Below, one piece after another: positions 1,883 to 42,176 of a stretch of 42,176 bases of DNA; the first letter of the stretch is position 1, and each line of letters begins with the position of its first letter. This DNA is from a virus, in IMG/VR virus record IMGVR_UViG_3300042922_000210, positions 1 through 42,176 of that record; one strand, written 5' to 3'. A program made the position numbers and the translations under genes. A model generated the notes under the pieces. It did no database searches. It saw nothing but the letters and a program-made list of their open reading frames with translations, and was not told where the DNA came from.

Positions 1883-1956
1883 CCAGATAAGCCATAAACC
1901 CTTATCCGGCCCCCGTTATCACTGGGATTATTCGGTCTGACTCGATGGCCTCCGGC
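1883..1956 (-). repeat. conserved intergenic element, copy A (50-nt core 1907..1956 plus 9-bp hairpin 1883..1909)
   Basis: Minus strand GCCGGAGGCCATCGAGTCAGACCGAATAATCCCAGTGATAACGGGGGCCG starts right after the stop at 1957. The CCGGATAAG/CTTATCTGG hairpin has a G-U pair valid only on the minus-strand RNA. Confidence 0.6.
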
Positions 1957-2244
1957 CTAATCCTTCATATGGTCCTTTATCCGTGCTTTTGGCAGACGCA
2001 TTACGGCGAATGCTCCAAAGTCCGTGAGTGCTCCCTCGCCTTCTATCGCATCTTCAGGAATCCATATCTCACATTTGATACGGTAATACCCCTTGTGCTT
2101 TCCTGACTTGCTAGGTGCGTGCGTTGACATGTTTCCTACGAATGGCGCCAATACCATCATGCTGTCTTCGTTAACTTTCTTAATTTCATCCATTGCCGTT
2201 CCTACTGTTTCCTTGGTGACACCAAAGATGACCGCTTTGCTCAT
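1957..2244 (-). CDS. hypothetical protein (95 aa)
   Basis: ORF track; packed against neighbours on the same strand. Confidence 0.65.
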   Translation of the reverse strand: MSKAVIFGVTKETVGTAMDEIKKVNEDSMMVLAPFVGNMSTHAPSKSGKHKGYYRIKCEIWIPEDAIEGEGALTDFGAFAVMRLPKARIKDHMKD

Positions 2245-2702: not shown

Positions 2703-2780
2703 TTATAAGTTAAGTACCAGACCTTATACGGCCTCCGCTACGCTTAGCTGATTCAGTCGATATGGAGGCCTGACGGCCGT
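2703..2780 (-). repeat. degenerate copy D of the conserved element (GGCCTCC/GGAGGCC 7-bp hairpin plus TATAAG/CTTATA hairpin)
   Basis: Shares the ccttata-cggcc-ccg and tcagtcgat-atgg blocks with copy A; starts at the stop codon at 2780. Confidence 0.4.
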
Positions 2781-3400: not shown

Positions 3401-3490
3401 GGGAGAGGAGGGTTACTCCTACTCCCTTAATGATCTGTTTCGGCCCCCGGATACGCCTGGGTTTATGCTGTCGGACGATGTCCTTCGGCC
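3401..3490 (-). repeat. conserved intergenic element, copy C (core 3441..3490 plus bulged hairpin 3401..3426)
   Basis: Minus strand GGCCGAAGGACATCGTCCGACAGCATAAACCCAGGCGTATCCGGGGGCCG, 13 nt after the stop at 3504. Confidence 0.55.
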
Positions 3491-3503
3491 AATTGCATCA
3501 GGC

Positions 3504-3677
3504 TTAAATTTTTTCCAACTCGCTGTGGTAAAAGAAAAATCCAGGATGTTCTATCAAATTGTATGTGTACCGAGTAATACCCCTGCCCATTCTAGTAAGC
3601 GACCATTCGTTTATCGTGACGGTTTCTCCCGTTTTCTTTAACCGGACCTTTTCCCCATCTTCAAAGTGTTCTGACAT
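3504..3677 (-). CDS. hypothetical protein (57 aa), not in ORF track
   Basis: My translation: MSEHFEDGEKVRLKKTGETVTINEWSLTRMGRGITRYTYNLIEHPGFFFYHSELEKI. RBS AGGGGG. Confidence 0.5.
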   Translation of the reverse strand: MSEHFEDGEKVRLKKTGETVTINEWSLTRMGRGITRYTYNLIEHPGFFFYHSELEKI

Positions 3678-4450: not shown

Positions 4451-5031
4451 GGCTGTATCTCCCCTAGAGCAGCTCGGGCTACCGATCTGAAATACTTGCC
4501 TGTGGTTGGAGCAGGCCTGTGTGCGATATCATCCAGCGCCTCCCGTTGCCGGGCTATGGTCTGCCTTGCTTCAAATAGCTCCAAGCCCTTCTCTTTTGAG
4601 ATATTGTCTGCTGCCTTCTGTGCACTTTCTCTGCTTAATTCCAGTTTCTCTATATATAATCGCTTCCGGGCTATGGTCTGTTGTGCCTCAATCAGTTCTT
4701 TTGTGTCCTCGTCAAATAGATTTTTTAGCCTTTCTATCTCCTGTTGTGACTCACGGTGCGCCCTGGCTAGTACACTGTGTTTATTAAGGAGCGAATCGTA
4801 CTCACCGCGACTTACGCAGAAACCTTGAAGCCCTTCATATGCCGCATACGCCAGTTCTGCTTGTTGTTGTGCCTCTTCTAGAGCAGCCAGCGCCCTGTTC
4901 AAGTCTCTGCTTTCTCCGCCTAAGTAGCTGCACATGCTGTCGAACACGGACATGATGCCCATTGAAGCGCCTTGATGTTCTAATTCAGTTCTGAACATTA
5001 TGCATGTTGATTTTAGAGTTTCTGGTGTCAT
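4447..5031 (-). CDS. coiled-coil protein (194 aa)
   Basis: ORF track; repeated EAQQ..IAR.. heptad-like segments. Confidence 0.7.
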   Translation of the reverse strand: MTPETLKSTCIMFRTELEHQGASMGIMSVFDSMCSYLGGESRDLNRALAALEEAQQQAELAYAAYEGLQGFCVSRGEYDSLLNKHSVLARAHRESQQEIERLKNLFDEDTKELIEAQQTIARKRLYIEKLELSRESAQKAADNISKEKGLELFEARQTIARQREALDDIAHRPAPTTGKYFRSVARAALGEIQP

Positions 5032-5304: not shown

Positions 5305-5584
5305 AGGAACCCCCGGTACGGCCCCCGGCTTGCGCCTGGGTGATTTCGGACGACTCGATGTCCTCCGGCAAAACCTCTTTCTTCGCCCATTGTGCGAACC
5401 AGCCAAAACCAACTACTTTTGATAGTCCCGTTTCAACCCCACCAATCAAAACGTTATACTTTACTCCTTTTGGATATATGCATCCGTATCCATCGTGCAT
5501 ATTTCTTGATATCGCTACAATTTTTCTAATCTGTCCCTTTCCATTGCTGTATAACTTTCCTACTTGAATGTCTGATCCTTTCAT
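5297..5584 (-). CDS. hypothetical protein (95 aa)
   Basis: ATG at 5584 after GAGAGGGTG. The last ~24 codons coincide with element copy G. Confidence 0.6.
   Translation of the reverse strand: MKGSDIQVGKLYSNGKGQIRKIVAISRNMHDGYGCIYPKGVKYNVLIGGVETGLSKVVGFGWFAQWAKKEVLPEDIESSEITQAQAGGRTGGSYE
5319..5369 (-). repeat. conserved element, copy G (inside the 3' end of CDS 5297..5584)
   Basis: Minus strand GCCGGAGGACATCGAGTCGTCCGAAATCACCCAGGCGCAAGCCGGGGGCCG. The first 18 nt differ from copy A at a single position. Confidence 0.55.
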
Positions 5585-16611: not shown

Positions 16612-16841
16612 TGTACTCAGGCTTCATGTCCAGGGGGCTCATTGATTCAATACCTTGCAATATGCGGCTTGTCCGTACTCCTAGCTCTTCCAACGTTTGT
16701 CTTGTTATGTCCATCTTTACCTTGTCCATTGAAACAACCCCTTAGAGTTTTTACAGCGATGATCCGTTAATATTACCACATCACTGGGCATTACGGAATG
16801 TATGTTCGTATTTTAAATAAAAAAATATAGGTGACATCGAC

Positions 16842-17054
16842 ATGGGTTATGTACCTGGTCGTTGCCTACTGAAGAAAAGACTTAGAGAAATCAGGCAGAA
16901 TCAACAATGGCTAGCCGGTGAATTAAATATGCCAAAGGCCCAAATATCTGATTACGCGAATAATCGGAAGGTAATGTCTCTCGCTACTGCGAAAACAATT
17001 GCCGTGGCATTGGGTTGCTACATCGATGATCTCTATGACTTTAATAAACAGTAG
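16842..17054 (+). CDS. XRE-family HTH protein (70 aa)
   Basis: LREIRQNQQWLAGELNMPKAQISDYANNRKVMSLATAKTIAVALGC. Confidence 0.75.
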   Translation: MGYVPGRCLLKKRLREIRQNQQWLAGELNMPKAQISDYANNRKVMSLATAKTIAVALGCYIDDLYDFNKQ

Positions 17055-17089
17055 GCTTGAGCGGCATTCAGCTGCTCCGACCCGGTTGT

Positions 17090-17111
17090 TAGTACTCCGT
17101 ACGGAGTACTA
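17090..17111. repeat. 22-bp perfect palindrome tAGTACTCCGTACGGAGTACTa
   Basis: Read directly; 36 nt after the XRE stop, no T-tract. Confidence 0.7.
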
Positions 17112-17206
17112 CAAACAATCATAATACATAATTCTGCAATAATCACCTGCCCTTTAGTACTAATTACTTTATGTCGTTAATATATCACTCTATTTATGAA
17201 AACGCT

Positions 17207-17225
17207 GTCGAACGAGGTCGAACGA
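17207..17225. repeat. tandem direct repeat GTCGAACGA-g-GTCGAACGA
   Basis: Read directly in the gap downstream of 17268..17600. Confidence 0.6.
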
Positions 17226-17267
17226 TTGTACCCGTCCAACAACAGTGGAGGGGTTGACAATCACATA

Positions 17268-30428: not shown

Positions 30429-30553
30429 GAAGCACCTCCTTTCTTATTGCGCAGTATGATCCTACTATTCAAAACTTTTTATAATAGTATAAATCCTCCA
30501 TTTCCTTTAAAATGAGACATGCGTTGTCATTTTTTAGAAAGGAGGTAAAGCAT

Positions 30554-30796
30554 TTGAAAAAGATAAGACTAAAGATCATACCAAAACCAGACGAAGGAAC
30601 AGCCACTGTTTTCACTAAAGGCAATAGCCCTAATCGAGAACCCTTTATAAAGGGTGAAGGAAGTTATAAACTGACTTGTGGATTCTGCGATTTCGTTCTC
30701 GCTCAAGGTGTGGAATTATCAGGGGTAACAGGCATTGTACTTCACTGCCCTAAATGCAAGAAGTACAACCTGTCTAGTCCACCTACACAAGATTAG
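30554..30796 (+). CDS. zinc-ribbon protein (80 aa), opposite-strand moron in the tail module
   Basis: TTG at 30554, 8 nt after AAAGGAGG; CGFCDF...HCPKCKKY. Confidence 0.65.
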   Translation: MKKIRLKIIPKPDEGTATVFTKGNSPNREPFIKGEGSYKLTCGFCDFVLAQGVELSGVTGIVLHCPKCKKYNLSSPPTQD

Positions 30797-30923
30797 AATT
30801 TTTAGTTAAGATTGTAGAATCCATATCATATGTTTTTGGACACAATACACAATCAATGTTCATGATTACCGGCTGATTTCCAACCAGTTTGAAAATCAGC
30901 CATTCTCTGATCCTTCTGAACAT
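30783..30923 (-). CDS. possible 46-aa protein, not in ORF track
   Basis: Strong RBS GGAGGTGATGAGC-ATG. The body contains a 10-bp hairpin (30871-30901) that could instead terminate the plus-strand gene. Confidence 0.3.
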   Translation of the reverse strand: MFRRIREWLIFKLVGNQPVIMNIDCVLCPKTYDMDSTILTKNSNLV

Positions 30924-30948
30924 GCTCATCACCTCCTAAAATTTAAAG

Positions 30949-30968
30949 AGCCTCCCGACAAGGAGGCT
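30949..30968. terminator. bidirectional intrinsic terminator
   Basis: AGCCTCC-cgacaa-GGAGGCT flanked by AAATTTAAAG and ATTATTTGTGTT. Confidence 0.65.
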
Positions 30969-31005
30969 ATTATTTGTGTTGAAATTTGCGATCCTCGTCC
31001 CGGCC

Positions 31006-40055: not shown

Positions 40056-40145
40056 TGTGTTCACCTCCCTCTAATCTAACTTAATTGCGCTATAATTCAC
40101 GCCTATTTTCGATTTACAAAGTATAACACTCGTAATTTCGGAGAC

Positions 40146-40364
40146 TTATACTGTTGTAGTCTGCGCATTTGCGTCATATCTCGCCTGTGATGGCTTAGTT
40201 GATATATACGTTTGGCCGTCTCCCGGATACGTTACGGCGCCACTCAGTGGTGATCCAATGCTTGTTGCTGCGCCAATAGGCTTTACTCCCACTGGTTTAA
40301 GCTGCTGATACTTCATAATTTCCTCTGGCGTACCTTCAACCGTTCCATCTGGATGTAGTTTCAT
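40146..40364 (-). CDS. hypothetical protein (72 aa), first gene of the packaging operon
   Basis: ORF track; RBS GAGGTGGTGAG. Confidence 0.65.
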   Translation of the reverse strand: MKLHPDGTVEGTPEEIMKYQQLKPVGVKPIGAATSIGSPLSGAVTYPGDGQTYISTKPSQARYDANAQTTTV

Positions 40365-40392
40365 CTATCTCACCACCTCGATCACTATAGTC

Positions 40393-40422
40393 ATCATAAT
40401 GATAAATATAATAGATAAGTAA
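40393..40422 (-). promoter_or_regulatory. candidate promoter TTACTT-18-TATGAT for the packaging operon
   Basis: Read on the minus strand in the AT-rich 120 nt between terminator and ATG 40364. Confidence 0.3.
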
Positions 40423-40441
40423 TACTCTGAATGCCTCATTG

Positions 40442-40479
40442 CGGCCCCCGTTTCACTGGGTAATTCGGTCGAATCGATG
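40442..40479 (-). repeat. conserved element, copy B (immediately 3' of the leader terminator)
   Basis: Minus strand CATCGATTCGACCGAATTACCCAGTGAAACGGGGGCCG. Confidence 0.55.
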
Positions 40480-40486
40480 CAGAGAT

Positions 40487-40520
40487 AAAAACAAAAAAGG
40501 CAACGGCGTATACCGTTACC
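40487..40520 (-). terminator. strong intrinsic terminator ending the ORF-free leader
   Basis: GGTAACGG-tatacg-CCGTTGCC followed by TTTTTTGTTTTT. Confidence 0.85.
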
Positions 40521-40875
40521 TCTTGCAGATTCAGCGCGCCCTAAACCCCGTCATGCGCGTGCACTCGGCCCCTTGATGCTTTGCCTTGTGTTTCCCTTTT
40601 ATGCCCGATCCCTGTAATCCCATAGGCCGACCGGCGTTATCACTATGAGATAGCCCACAAGTACTAAGCTAAGCATAGCTTAACCGTCATAACGTACATG
40701 CAGGCCTATATGCAAACCATCCCCAACATCGAAGTGTGCGCATTAGCGCGTTATGGATGGGTGTTGCTAAAATGTAGCGCCAGTCTCCCAGCGCCAAGGG
40801 GTAGGAGTGAATCATCCAAGTGATGGGAATCGGCGATAGGGGCAGTCCCCGGGTCACTGATCGCCAATTCCTCAT
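40487..40875 (-). ncRNA. candidate structured non-coding RNA / late-operon leader of about 390 nt, class unknown
   Basis: No credible ORF in a 523-bp gap and visibly GC-richer than its flanks. 12-bp helix GGAAUUGGCGAU/AUCGCCGAUUCC (40826-40871), further helices, terminator at the 3' end. Confidence 0.45.
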
Positions 40876-40881
40876 ACTACT

Positions 40882-40890
40882 ATAATATCA
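40882..40890 (-). promoter_or_regulatory. extended -10 (TGaTATTAT) overlapping the stop codon of 40888..41307
   Basis: Read on the minus strand; would start the leader near 40875. Confidence 0.35.
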
Positions 40891-41307
40891 CGATGCATTT
40901 GTACTTTGTGTATCCTTTTTGTATCCTCTTTTGTAGCAATAAGTGCGAATATGGCTTTCACTGTAGCCTAATTCCATTGCAATTTCCTTGTACTTTTTAC
41001 CTGCAAGTCGTCTGCTTTGGATCATATTTTCCAGTCCGGTGAACTTAGCAATCTCCACGTCCATGTCATTCTTCATCTTCTGCACACGGTCGATCTCTTC
41101 CCGGATGCATTCCAATTCATGCTGTTCTCTCTCAATCTTCTCCAGCCCTTTATCTAGAGAGATATGCACGTATGGCCCTGATGATGGCATGCTGCCGATT
41201 ACTGTGTACTTATATGCCAACTCAACTCTTCGCTTGACTTCCTTTTCCCTGAGACGAAGTATCTGCAGCTCCGCACACGTATCAGCGTATGACTCCTTCC
41301 AGTTCAT
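40888..41307 (-). CDS. putative late-gene transcriptional regulator (sigma-70 region-4-like HTH; ArpU/RinA-like size and position)
   Basis: 139 aa; C-terminal RRLAGKKYKEIAMELGYSESHIRTYCYKRG; located just upstream of terS as in many Bacillota phages. Confidence 0.5.
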   Translation of the reverse strand: MNWKESYADTCAELQILRLREKEVKRRVELAYKYTVIGSMPSSGPYVHISLDKGLEKIEREQHELECIREEIDRVQKMKNDMDVEIAKFTGLENMIQSRRLAGKKYKEIAMELGYSESHIRTYCYKRGYKKDTQSTNAS

Positions 41308-41802: not shown

Positions 41803-42176
41803 TTAAGCAACCGATCTATTGGATTCGATCTGGGCGACTCTGGCTTTGAGCTCTTCGAATTCTTCGCGTGTAACTGGCGATCCAGCCACTGTTGATGCCT
41901 CAGCAGCCAATCCAGGCTCTGCGGCGTTCTCGTCTTCGCCACGAAAGGCAGGTGCGGTGTAAGTCGTTTCTACCTCGTCTGTGCTGTCGGGAATATCGTA
42001 TGAATGATCCTCTTCAACAGGCGCCGGTTGTTGCGCTGCAAGGTACTCGGTTCGAAATGTCACCGCTTGTTCAGCGGACACCTCCACATATCTGGCCTCT
42101 TTGTAAATAAACCAGTCTTCGAAAGATTCGTCTGTCTCTGCAAATTTCGCCCGGAACCGGCTTCTGCGGTGGTCCA
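41803..42176 (-). CDS. C-terminal part of the junction-spanning coiled-coil acidic protein (42050..42176 duplicates 1..127)
   Basis: Same frame as 1..749 through the terminal repeat. The track start at 42087 is an internal GTG. Confidence 0.7.
   Translation of the reverse strand, partial: DHRRSRFRAKFAETDESFEDWFIYKEARYVEVSAEQAVTFRTEYLAAQQPAPVEEDHSYDIPDSTDEVETTYTAPAFRGEDENAAEPGLAAEASTVAGSPVTREEFEELKARVAQIESNRSVA
42050..42176. repeat. second copy of the 127-bp terminal repeat
   Basis: Identical to 1..127. Confidence 0.97.

Follow-up and report, generated by a model that had tools for sequence, protein, structure and literature searches.

The IMG/VR virus record IMGVR_UViG_3300042922_000210, whose 42,176 nucleotides (nt) are called the window here, carries on its minus strand a 523-nt gap (40887-40365) between the gene for a 139-amino-acid (aa) regulator and the packaging genes. 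We favor, tentatively, the interpretation that this gap is a late-operon control region and the counterpart of the ltr-terS intergenic region, in which an Ltr-dependent late promoter would be followed by a structured leader and a terminator that is read through, much as in the PR'-tR' unit of lambda. Control regions of this kind, placed behind an Ltr regulator, are known already. What is new is a conserved structured RNA tied to the regulator, a modular cassette of RNA domains and tRNA genes in the leader, and a repeated two-hairpin element. Regulators of the Ltr superfamily govern packaging, lysis, and gene transfer (transduction and mobilization of pathogenicity islands) in many Gram-positive phages, and their action at a distance across a terminator was left unexplained in two earlier studies (Quiles-Puchalt 2013, PMC3753634; Ferrer 2011, PMC3152322).

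The evidence comes from comparison. About 30 distinct versions of the gap were gathered by protein-anchored searches, a search for homologs that was followed up on their contigs, two scans of IMG/VR for DNA patterns, and local nhmmer and blastn. The relatives are Paenibacillus (pro)phages (P. jilunlii, Paenibacillus sp. FSL K6-1217, and P. riograndensis); among 50,697 phage records, no isolated phage matched the region by blastn or the regulator by tblastn. The neighboring regulator protein is 45-66% identical among the relatives, and the blocks of the gap are 75-100% identical in DNA. An E-INS-i alignment of the homologous gaps gave the order of the modules: promoter, P1, C/U-rich linker, P2 with its U-run, an optional tRNA gene, and the P3 domain, and after P3 a set of variable modules, the terminator, the two-hairpin element, and the late 5' region. 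The window contains the following features, several of which had been proposed in an initial annotation made from the window alone; all of the coordinates given there agree with the sequence.

40888-41307, minus strand: late regulator gene, 139 aa, with an N-terminal helical hairpin and a C-terminal sigma-70 region 4-like helix-turn-helix (HTH); LtrA-like
40874-40890, minus strand: putative promoter core, consisting of the extended -10 TGATATTAT (40890-40882), 2 nt, and a second -10-like hexamer, TAGTAT (40879-40874)
40826-40871, minus strand: P1 hairpin, a 12-bp stem plus an inner 4-bp stem (40859-40856/40846-40843)
40796-40825, minus strand: unpaired, C/U-rich linker with the anti-Shine-Dalgarno-like motif GAUUCACUCCU (40806-40816)
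40769-40795, minus strand: P2, an 8-bp hairpin GGCGCUGG-GAGA-CUGGCGCU (40795-40776) followed by ACAUUUU
40706-40768, minus strand: P3 domain, AGCAAC...GCAUAUAG, which includes the CCAUCC/GGAUGG helix
40652-40706, minus strand: hairpin H, which is long and local and has UAAGC/GCUUA as its inner stem
40525-40651, minus strand: variable segment, about 125 nt found only in this phage
40485-40524, minus strand: predicted intrinsic terminator, AAGAGGUAACGG-UAUA-CGCCGUUGCCUUUU followed by UUGUUUUU
40426-40480, minus strand: copy B of the two-hairpin element, with GCAUCGAUUCGACCGAAU, hairpin 2 (HP2; CCC-A-GU-GAA-AC-G-GGG), GCCG, and UGAGGCAUUCAGA (40438-40426); nhmmer E = 2.4e-12
40362-40425, minus strand: late 5' region, with TACTTA (40421-40416), 17 nt, TATGAT (40398-40393), the Shine-Dalgarno (SD) sequence GAGGUGGUGAG, and the ATG at 40364-40362

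The initial annotation had described 40365-40887 as free of credible open reading frames (ORFs), and the relatives bear this out. That the region holds a small protein-coding gene, either the ORF at 40687-40875 or another, is hardly credible. The ATG at 40875 is indeed kept in nearly all relatives, where it sits in the 5' flank of P1. However, the ORF that begins with it ranges from 3 to 184 aa in 29 homologs and is broken by frame-disrupting indels, it has no ribosome-binding site and no Pfam or PHROG match, and the substitutions track base pairing rather than codons. We rejected the coding hypothesis. Gene callers, as seen in public annotations, leave 274-596 nt uncalled here in eight loci (seven relatives and the window's own contig).

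Nor did the region resemble a cataloged RNA. A scan with Rfam 15, proposed as a check in the initial annotation, returned 0 hits in the window at the gathering threshold and only chance-level alignments between 40100 and 41000 at E values up to 10; in 17 relatives, it detected the inserted tRNAs described below and nothing else. ARAGORN found neither a tRNA nor a transfer-messenger RNA (tmRNA) in the window. These searches, in which the Rfam families also included GOLLD, ROOL, HEARO, c4, and ribozymes, agree with the earlier failure to match the region to tmRNA, RNase P, 6S, a riboswitch, or a large ornate RNA. The fold predicted for the whole region is only mildly better than those of shuffled sequences (z = -2.3), so our case rests on comparison and not on folding energy.

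Comparison confirmed a hairpin near the start of the predicted transcript. The 12-bp helix of P1 (40871-40860/40837-40826), noticed at the outset in the window alone, covaries in 16 distinct homologs and is extended by the inner 4-bp stem; 97.7% of cells are paired, and 11 of the 16 pairs are changed on both sides. None of 500 shuffles reached the observed values, and slid controls gave 22-48%. The alignment contains 33 G-U cells and 6 non-pairs. Because a G-U pair would be an A-C mismatch on the opposite strand, what is constrained is RNA of the sense strand rather than a palindrome in the DNA. No version changes the 3' bulge, CCCCU (40842-40838), and the 9-nt loop (40855-40847) holds a self-complementary hexamer, which is CCCGGG in the lineage of the window and CGCGCG in most relatives, a double change that preserves the palindrome. 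The palindrome could mediate loop-loop dimerization, as at the dimerization initiation site (DIS) of human immunodeficiency virus type 1 (HIV-1), or it could reflect one chance event. A pairing of the bulge (GCCCCU) with GGGGGC of the two-hairpin element was considered by eye and dropped, as the element side varies and the bulge is invariant.

The hairpins downstream of P1 are also maintained. Among 19 distinct versions of P2, 14 keep all 8 pairs and 5 keep 7, with loops of 4-10 nt and a closing pair that is G-C in 10 versions and A-U in 8. P2 is a weak terminator at most. The P3 domain is common to many relatives, with 95-100% identity; its CCAUCC/GGAUGG helix (40760-40755/40722-40717), another early proposal, is kept in 11 homologs with one covarying pair, and other relatives have an alternative helix at that position. 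Hairpin H folds alike in five homologs, with compensatory changes. It excludes a third proposed helix, CUUGUG/CACAAG (40661-40656/40590-40585): CUUGUG is instead the 3' strand of hairpin H (40706-40652), and CACAAG sits in the segment found only in this phage. The conservation and covariation of P1, P2, hairpin H, and HP2 indicate selection on RNA structure of the sense strand.

Between P1 and P2, a CACUCC-type motif is retained inside an otherwise variable linker. The motif GAUUCACUCCU resembles the 3' end of 16S rRNA (GAUCACCUCCU) and looks like an anti-Shine-Dalgarno mimic. Duplexes between the linker and the late 5' untranslated region (UTR) were no better than those of shuffled sequences (z = -1.7 to +0.6).

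Conservation among the relatives is limited to the first approximately 110 nt (P1, linker, and P2), to P3, and to the terminator with the element that follows it. At the position of the variable segment, relatives carry other modules, including a tRNA-like domain, and a search of the relatives for homologs of 40525-40651 found none beyond one 43-nt match. The length of the region ranges from 150 to 700 nt, and the shortest versions (L004) keep only P1, P2, and the terminator. We read the region as a mosaic of exchangeable modules. The initial proposal of a structured noncoding RNA (ncRNA) or leader holds in that the region is conserved, structured on the sense strand, preceded by a promoter-like start, and capped by a terminator, but the idea of one ornate RNA of about 390 nt does not.

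The modules include genuine tRNA genes (Trp-CCA, Ile-UAU, and others). In five relatives, these lie exactly between the P2 U-run and P3, in the same orientation as the leader and with their first base directly after UUUU, at the following positions.

L088, 5537-5609: inserted tRNA
L094, 1703-1775: inserted tRNA
L096, 580-673: inserted tRNA of 94 nt, about 20 nt of which are an insertion, called "Phe-AAA"
L097, 1925-1998: inserted tRNA
L211, 5602-5675: inserted tRNA

This arrangement leaves no room for a promoter of the tRNA's own, so transcription must come from the 5' end of the region and pass P2, which cannot be an efficient terminator. The leader is thus a preferred site of phage tRNA genes. 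A separate tRNA-like domain ends the leader in many relatives (for example, L006, about 4625-4815; L090; L100; L211, 5740-5860; L098, about 3560-3660), though not in the window. Its stem of 7 bp, GAUGUGG/CCACAUC or, in L098, GCUGUUGG/CCAACAGC, resembles an acceptor stem and is accompanied by a canonical T-arm, which reads GGUUCGAAUCC or GGUGCAAAUCC, and by an insert of 100-150 nt. The domain is called by neither ARAGORN nor Rfam.

The distribution of P1 ties the 5' end of the leader to the regulator. Every P1 that we found follows the same regulator family. One relative, L211, encodes a different regulator, an ArpU-like protein of 145 aa. Behind its gene are three direct repeats of TTACCCAT at about -29 to -60, the core TAAAAT-AG-TAGTAT-AAGGAA, and a different 5' hairpin. 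From the linker on, which is shared despite the different regulator, L211 has the cassette of the window family: P2, tRNA gene, P3, terminator, element, and late 5' region. Because L211 differs in the promoter-proximal block and shares the cassette from the linker on, this block is the regulator-specific part. Furthermore, the terminases of phages that share P1 are of different types (Terminase_2+3 and Terminase_6N/6C, with TerL of 491-573 aa), so it is the regulator, and not the packaging machinery, to which P1 and the promoter-proximal block belong.

The putative promoter of the leader lies on the end of the regulator gene, where, as first noted in the window, the extended -10 TGATATTAT (40890-40882) overlaps the TGA stop codon. 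The core is kept in about 30 relatives, and L211 has the same -10/TAGTAT core after its different regulator, free of coding constraint. The composite motif TAWWATNNTAKTRK occurs once in 42 kb, in the 40890-40874 region, with 0.15 occurrences expected. This motif was written after seeing examples; it fits the window, 80alpha, and A118 and fails for phages 37 and 55, so the similarity of the core across families is qualitative only. Transcription would begin (+1) near 40875. Since the covariation of P1 reaches 40871, the start must lie upstream of that position.

The gene that ends at this core is directly upstream of the packaging/late operon, and its product is predicted to be an LtrA-like (sigma-70 region 4) late regulator. 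It matched phrog_36 (E = 1.7e-6) and, below the cut-off, Pfam Sigma70_r4_2 (E = 0.005), and in a pairwise BLASTP comparison it was 37% identical over 60 aa to LtrA of Staphylococcus phage 37 (YP_240149; E = 5e-7). An AlphaFold2 model (predicted local distance difference test score, 78) consists of a helical hairpin and a three-helix HTH. The best fold matches in BFVD were phage Sigma70_r4 and DUF1492 proteins, which are weak matches (E = 4e-3 to 0.08), and a fold search of the PDB with the model gave no significant match, Q proteins included. The N-terminus of the regulator, MNWKESYADTCAELQ (41263-41307), is invariant in the window and in four IMG/VR homologs that are otherwise 44-47% identical, and it varies in more distant homologs (MNWTQSYSDTCAELQ in L094). 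This invariant stretch could be an overlapping signal or an interaction surface.

At the other end of the leader, the strong terminator that was predicted from the window is present in all relatives. It comprises 13 pairs and the T-run TTGTTTTTAT (40524-40495), its stem carries compensating changes, and it lies directly upstream of the element and the late 5' region. The sequence from UGAGGCAUUCAGA to the first late ATG aligns without gaps in 16 distinct loci. A search for conserved RNA structure in the late 5' region found none (-0.4 kcal/mol).

Copy B of the two-hairpin element, which the initial annotation had recognized as a repeated element, proved to be real (40480-40441). The window has five copies, all on the gene strand and in short intergenic gaps. 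The other four are as follows.

1905-1958, minus strand: element copy A, with an upstream hairpin 1 (HP1), in an early intergenic gap; nhmmer E = 5.5e-13
2727-2778, minus strand: element copy; nhmmer E = 1.4e-6
3439-3492, minus strand: weaker element copy, with HP1, core, and HP2 visible; nhmmer E = 0.18
5317-5372, minus strand: element copy; nhmmer E = 1.3e-6

We found 108 distinct copies in the fetched loci L001-L221, with one to five per phage genome. The element begins with an optional HP1 (for example, GGCC-GAA-GGCC or GCGGC-AAA-GCCGC), which is followed by (C)AUCGA, a spacer of 2-5 nt (usually 3), GACCGAAU, HP2, and GCCG. HP2 was parsed in 55 distinct copies. It has three outer pairs, a conserved A-G mismatch (51/55), 2-5 inner pairs, and a loop that is mostly of the GNA type; 98.8% of its cells are paired, and its covariation score of 0.668, compared with 0.386 for shuffles, was reached by 0 of 500 shuffles. 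Copies lie directly after a T-run in 41% of cases, at a median distance of about 55 nt from the next SD sequence and start codon, and they are co-oriented in 31 of 35 multicopy loci. The element is absent from Rfam. Two other roles were considered and rejected: a sigma-A promoter, since the copies differ by about 10 nt in their spacing across HP2 and do not preserve the -10-like part, and a coding remnant, since the frame is not kept. The element most likely acts on read-through RNA, where it may be a processing or 5'-stabilizing site or a nut-like site. Like lambda nut sites and the RNase III sites of T7 and SP82, it is a short, conserved, orientation-specific intergenic RNA motif with several copies per genome, made up of a conserved single-stranded block and a covarying hairpin. 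However, nut sites precede terminators, whereas the element has five copies per genome and often stands just after a terminator, and in place of the long duplexes of RNase III sites it has two short hairpins that carry a conserved A-G mismatch; it also has no known partner protein.

The layout of the gap recalls the late control regions of characterized Gram-positive phages. LtrA (Sigma70_r4) and LtrB (DUF1492) are among the late-regulator families defined by Quiles-Puchalt 2013 (PMC3753634), who placed Ltr specificity in a block just distal to the ltr gene and found the rest of the ltr-terS gap to be interchangeable. A terminator between ltr and terS is described both there and in Ferrer 2011 (PMC3152322). 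In the latter study, a 5' end that depends on RinA was mapped in phi11 and 80alpha at a distance of 23 nt from the ATG of terS, on its upstream side, and was taken as the true start site; RinA nevertheless requires sequences more than 155 bp upstream of this 5' end, and the mechanism was called more complex than direct activation. In the sequences of four such phages, we found the following features behind the regulator gene.

80alpha (RinA), L252 1463-1476: repeats TGGCAGT, twice; core TATTAT-GA-TAGTGT; terminator 43 nt before the terS ATG
Phage 37 (LtrA), L254 about 2033-2046: core TATAGT-TA-TAGTAT; terminator, then terS
A118 (ArpU), L256 about 137-160: repeats TGGCACTTTT, twice; core TGATAAAAT-GT-TATTAG-TGAGAAG
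Phage 55 (LtrC), L257 about 1150-1175: repeats AAATGAC, four times; core TATAAT-TG-ACTTGT-AAGAATT; only the repeats and the core were read

The position of the 80alpha terminator, 43 nt before the terS ATG, places the published 5' end on its 3' side. Downstream of the A118 core are about 270 nt without a credible gene and then a terminator-like hairpin with a T-run, and the core itself nearly matches the one in L005, a Paenibacillus relative. Directly after the regulator-proximal repeats, the characterized phages appear to have a core in common with the window, in which a -10-like hexamer and a second, T/A-rich hexamer are spaced by 2 nt and followed by the purine-rich RAGRAA.

The window has in common with the Ltr-terS regions of 80alpha, phi11, 37, 55, and A118 (regulators RinA, ArpU, LtrA, LtrB, and LtrC) a small regulator gene directly before the packaging genes, a regulator homologous to LtrA of phage 37, a regulator-specific block distal to its gene with an interchangeable remainder, a terminator between the regulator and the first late gene, and a similar promoter-like core. 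It differs in that the gap is 523 nt long, compared with 186 nt in 80alpha, and is occupied by RNA hairpins that covary and, in the relatives, by tRNA genes as well. In addition, P1 is a regulator-linked structured RNA, of which none has been described for Ltr systems, and the block upstream of the -10 lies inside the regulator coding sequence in the window family. The Paenibacillus family thus enlarges the Ltr control region and makes parts of it visible by comparison alone, namely the promoter core, the regulator-linked RNA, the terminator, and a late 5' region of fixed sequence layout.

The initial annotation had likened the gap to the lambda PR'-6S-tR' unit. The layout fits, and the analogy is reinforced by the tRNA genes inside the leader of relatives and by the regulator-specific promoter-proximal block. 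In both systems, a promoter that looks constitutive stands at the end of the regulator gene, the leader, a few hundred nucleotides long, runs up to a strong terminator before the late genes, and regulator specificity lies near the promoter; tRNA genes stand behind PR' in Shiga toxin (Stx) phages and within the leader in the relatives studied here. Unlike lambda, the window encodes no Q protein as its regulator, its second -10-like hexamer, which would be the counterpart of the sigma-dependent pause element, lies only 2 nt after the -10 and not at +1 to +6, its leader carries a conserved structured RNA, and read-through is a proposal. The put RNA of HK022 likewise consists of stem-loops directly after a promoter and upstream of terminators. 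However, P1 and P2 are 30 nt apart and have no sequence similarity to put, and a different regulator family comes with a different hairpin in place of P1, a dependence not required of an RNA that works without a protein. P1 also resembles the 5' stabilizer stem-loops of the ermC and aprE leaders in lying about 4 nt from the probable 5' end, but it has invariant unpaired nucleotides and a palindromic loop, which generic stabilizers lack.

We therefore consider a control circuit of the following form, as suggested by the comparison. Host RNA polymerase would start near 40875 from a promoter that lies on the regulator stop codon and has an extended -10, no -35, and regulator-specific flanks. The transcript would open with P1, a 5'-terminal hairpin inherited together with the regulator, and continue through the C/U-rich linker, P2, and the exchangeable structured modules; in relatives, tRNAs would be cut out of the leader. 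Without the regulator, the strong terminator at 40524-40485 would stop the transcript and release a leader RNA of about 385 nt, an analog of lambda 6S. The LtrA-like regulator might activate the promoter, make transcription terminator resistant, or both, so that transcription would pass through element B into the packaging genes, and element B, which is also present in four early intergenic gaps, might act on the read-through RNA. This leader model is the most economical one because the regulator-specific cis block is at the 5' promoter and the late 5' region is common to different regulators.

Several points weigh against it. The regulator has no Q-family match in Pfam or PHROG, and published Ltr papers name these proteins activators and not antiterminators. 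Direct repeats of the Ltr type are unclear in the window, which offers only two 7-mers, ACAAAGT and ACAAATG, inside coding sequence. The extended -10 appears strong enough to fire without an activator, which fits a Q-like scheme but not simple activation. Finally, TACTTA-17-TATGAT in the late 5' region, at fixed spacing, predicts a start about 22 nt before the late ATG, similar to the mapped 5' end of phi11 and 80alpha, which is 23 nt from terS. This sequence is the main argument for a separate late promoter.

If such a late promoter exists, the upstream part could be a free-standing ncRNA unit, an explanation that we regard as possible but less probable than the leader. The promoter at the stop codon would then make a transcript of the small RNA (sRNA) type that ends at the P2 U-run or the strong terminator, with P1, an anti-SD-like seed, and P2 as the 3' hairpin, and the downstream modules and tRNAs would share its transcription unit; it might be a decoy or a trans-acting RNA whose targets could be, for instance, the ribosome-binding sites of mRNAs from the host or the phage. 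The sRNA-like architecture is echoed by an Rfam alignment to VrrA that scores no better than chance (21 bits; threshold, 50) and has the same order of hairpin, CUCC seed, hairpin, and U-run. Retention of CACUCC in a variable linker, a -10 able to fire unaided, and a strong, conserved terminator fit this explanation, as do the fixed spacing of a late 5' region without RNA structure, as expected of a promoter, and the position of the mapped phi11/80alpha 5' end on the 3' side of the terminator. However, no target emerged among the linker/late 5' UTR duplexes, the P2 U-run is only 4 nt long and 3 nt from the stem, and transcription must read through it to reach the tRNA genes that follow immediately. 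The 5' hairpin differs between regulator families, whereas the supposed seed stays the same, and it is left unexplained how regulator sites at the 5' end would control a promoter about 450 nt away, past a terminator.

The gap might also be merely the 3' UTR and terminator of the regulator's (middle) operon, which would insulate the late genes and serve as a tolerated landing pad for tRNAs and RNA modules, with P1, P2, and the other hairpins as mRNA stability elements or neutral passengers. P1 does begin only 16 nt past the stop codon, and the mosaic structure, the 150- to 700-nt range of lengths, and the reduction of the shortest relatives to P1, P2, and terminator would suit such a tract. We nevertheless consider it unlikely, given that the -10/TAGTAT core is conserved without coding constraint in L211, that a similar core follows the regulator gene in four characterized Ltr phages, and that the invariant CCCCU bulge and palindromic loop of P1 point to specific recognition and not to generic stability. 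Far less probable still is a packaging site (cos or pac) for the downstream terminase, with the P1 inverted repeat as a DNA site. Its appeal lies in the location directly upstream of terS and the palindromic center of P1, and the invariant ACUGCCCC resembles CGACTGCCC, the cohesive end of some P. larvae phages. We rejected this role: the same P1 occurs with different terminases (Terminase_2+3 and Terminase_6N/6C, TerL of 491-573 aa) and tracks the regulator instead, TerL of the window is of the PBSX (headful) type, and the strand-specific excess of G-U pairs over non-pairs (33 versus 6) is not expected of a DNA site.

Extended beyond the window, the leader model raises the idea that Ltr-type regulators (RinA, ArpU, and LtrA-LtrC) are promoter-specific antiterminators like lambda Q, which would load behind their own gene and pass the terminator. 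We offer this generalization as speculation that is rather unlikely to be true. If it is true, the promoter-proximal block, including the P1 RNA, would be a qut-like specificity determinant, and the 5' end mapped just before terS would have arisen by processing, perhaps at the two-hairpin element. It would also explain why RinA needs sequences more than 155 bp upstream, across the terminator. Comparison thus yields a testable antitermination model for Ltr regulators, along with two RNA motifs that have no Rfam entry: the P1-P2 leader and the widespread two-hairpin element, with up to five copies per genome.

The surroundings of the gap are those of a complete phage. The ends of the contig form an exact 127-nt direct repeat (1-127 = 42050-42176), which indicates a complete, circularly permuted genome of 42,049 bp. 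All genes around the gap are on the minus strand, in the following order.

Minus strand, 5' to 3': 139-aa regulator (41307-40888), 523-nt gap (40887-40365), 72-aa ORF, TerS, TerL

TerS matches phrog_309 (E = 1e-56), and TerL is of the PBSX type (Terminase_3, E = 2e-52). A second conserved intergenic block, UCUCCGAAAUUACGAG-TGTTATACT, lies between the 72-aa ORF and terS (40120-40145, minus strand). It contains an extended -10-like motif (40128-40120) just upstream of terS, which reads GKGTTATACY in several relatives.

The initial annotation had also stated that the other gaps of the genome span 0-170 bp. This is only roughly true: in a crude scan, long ORFs were also lacking from 16612-17267 and from 30429-31005, each of which exceeds 500 nt. 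The former resembles a divergent lysogeny-switch region. The latter lies among structural genes and contains only minus-strand ORFs of 45-51 aa.

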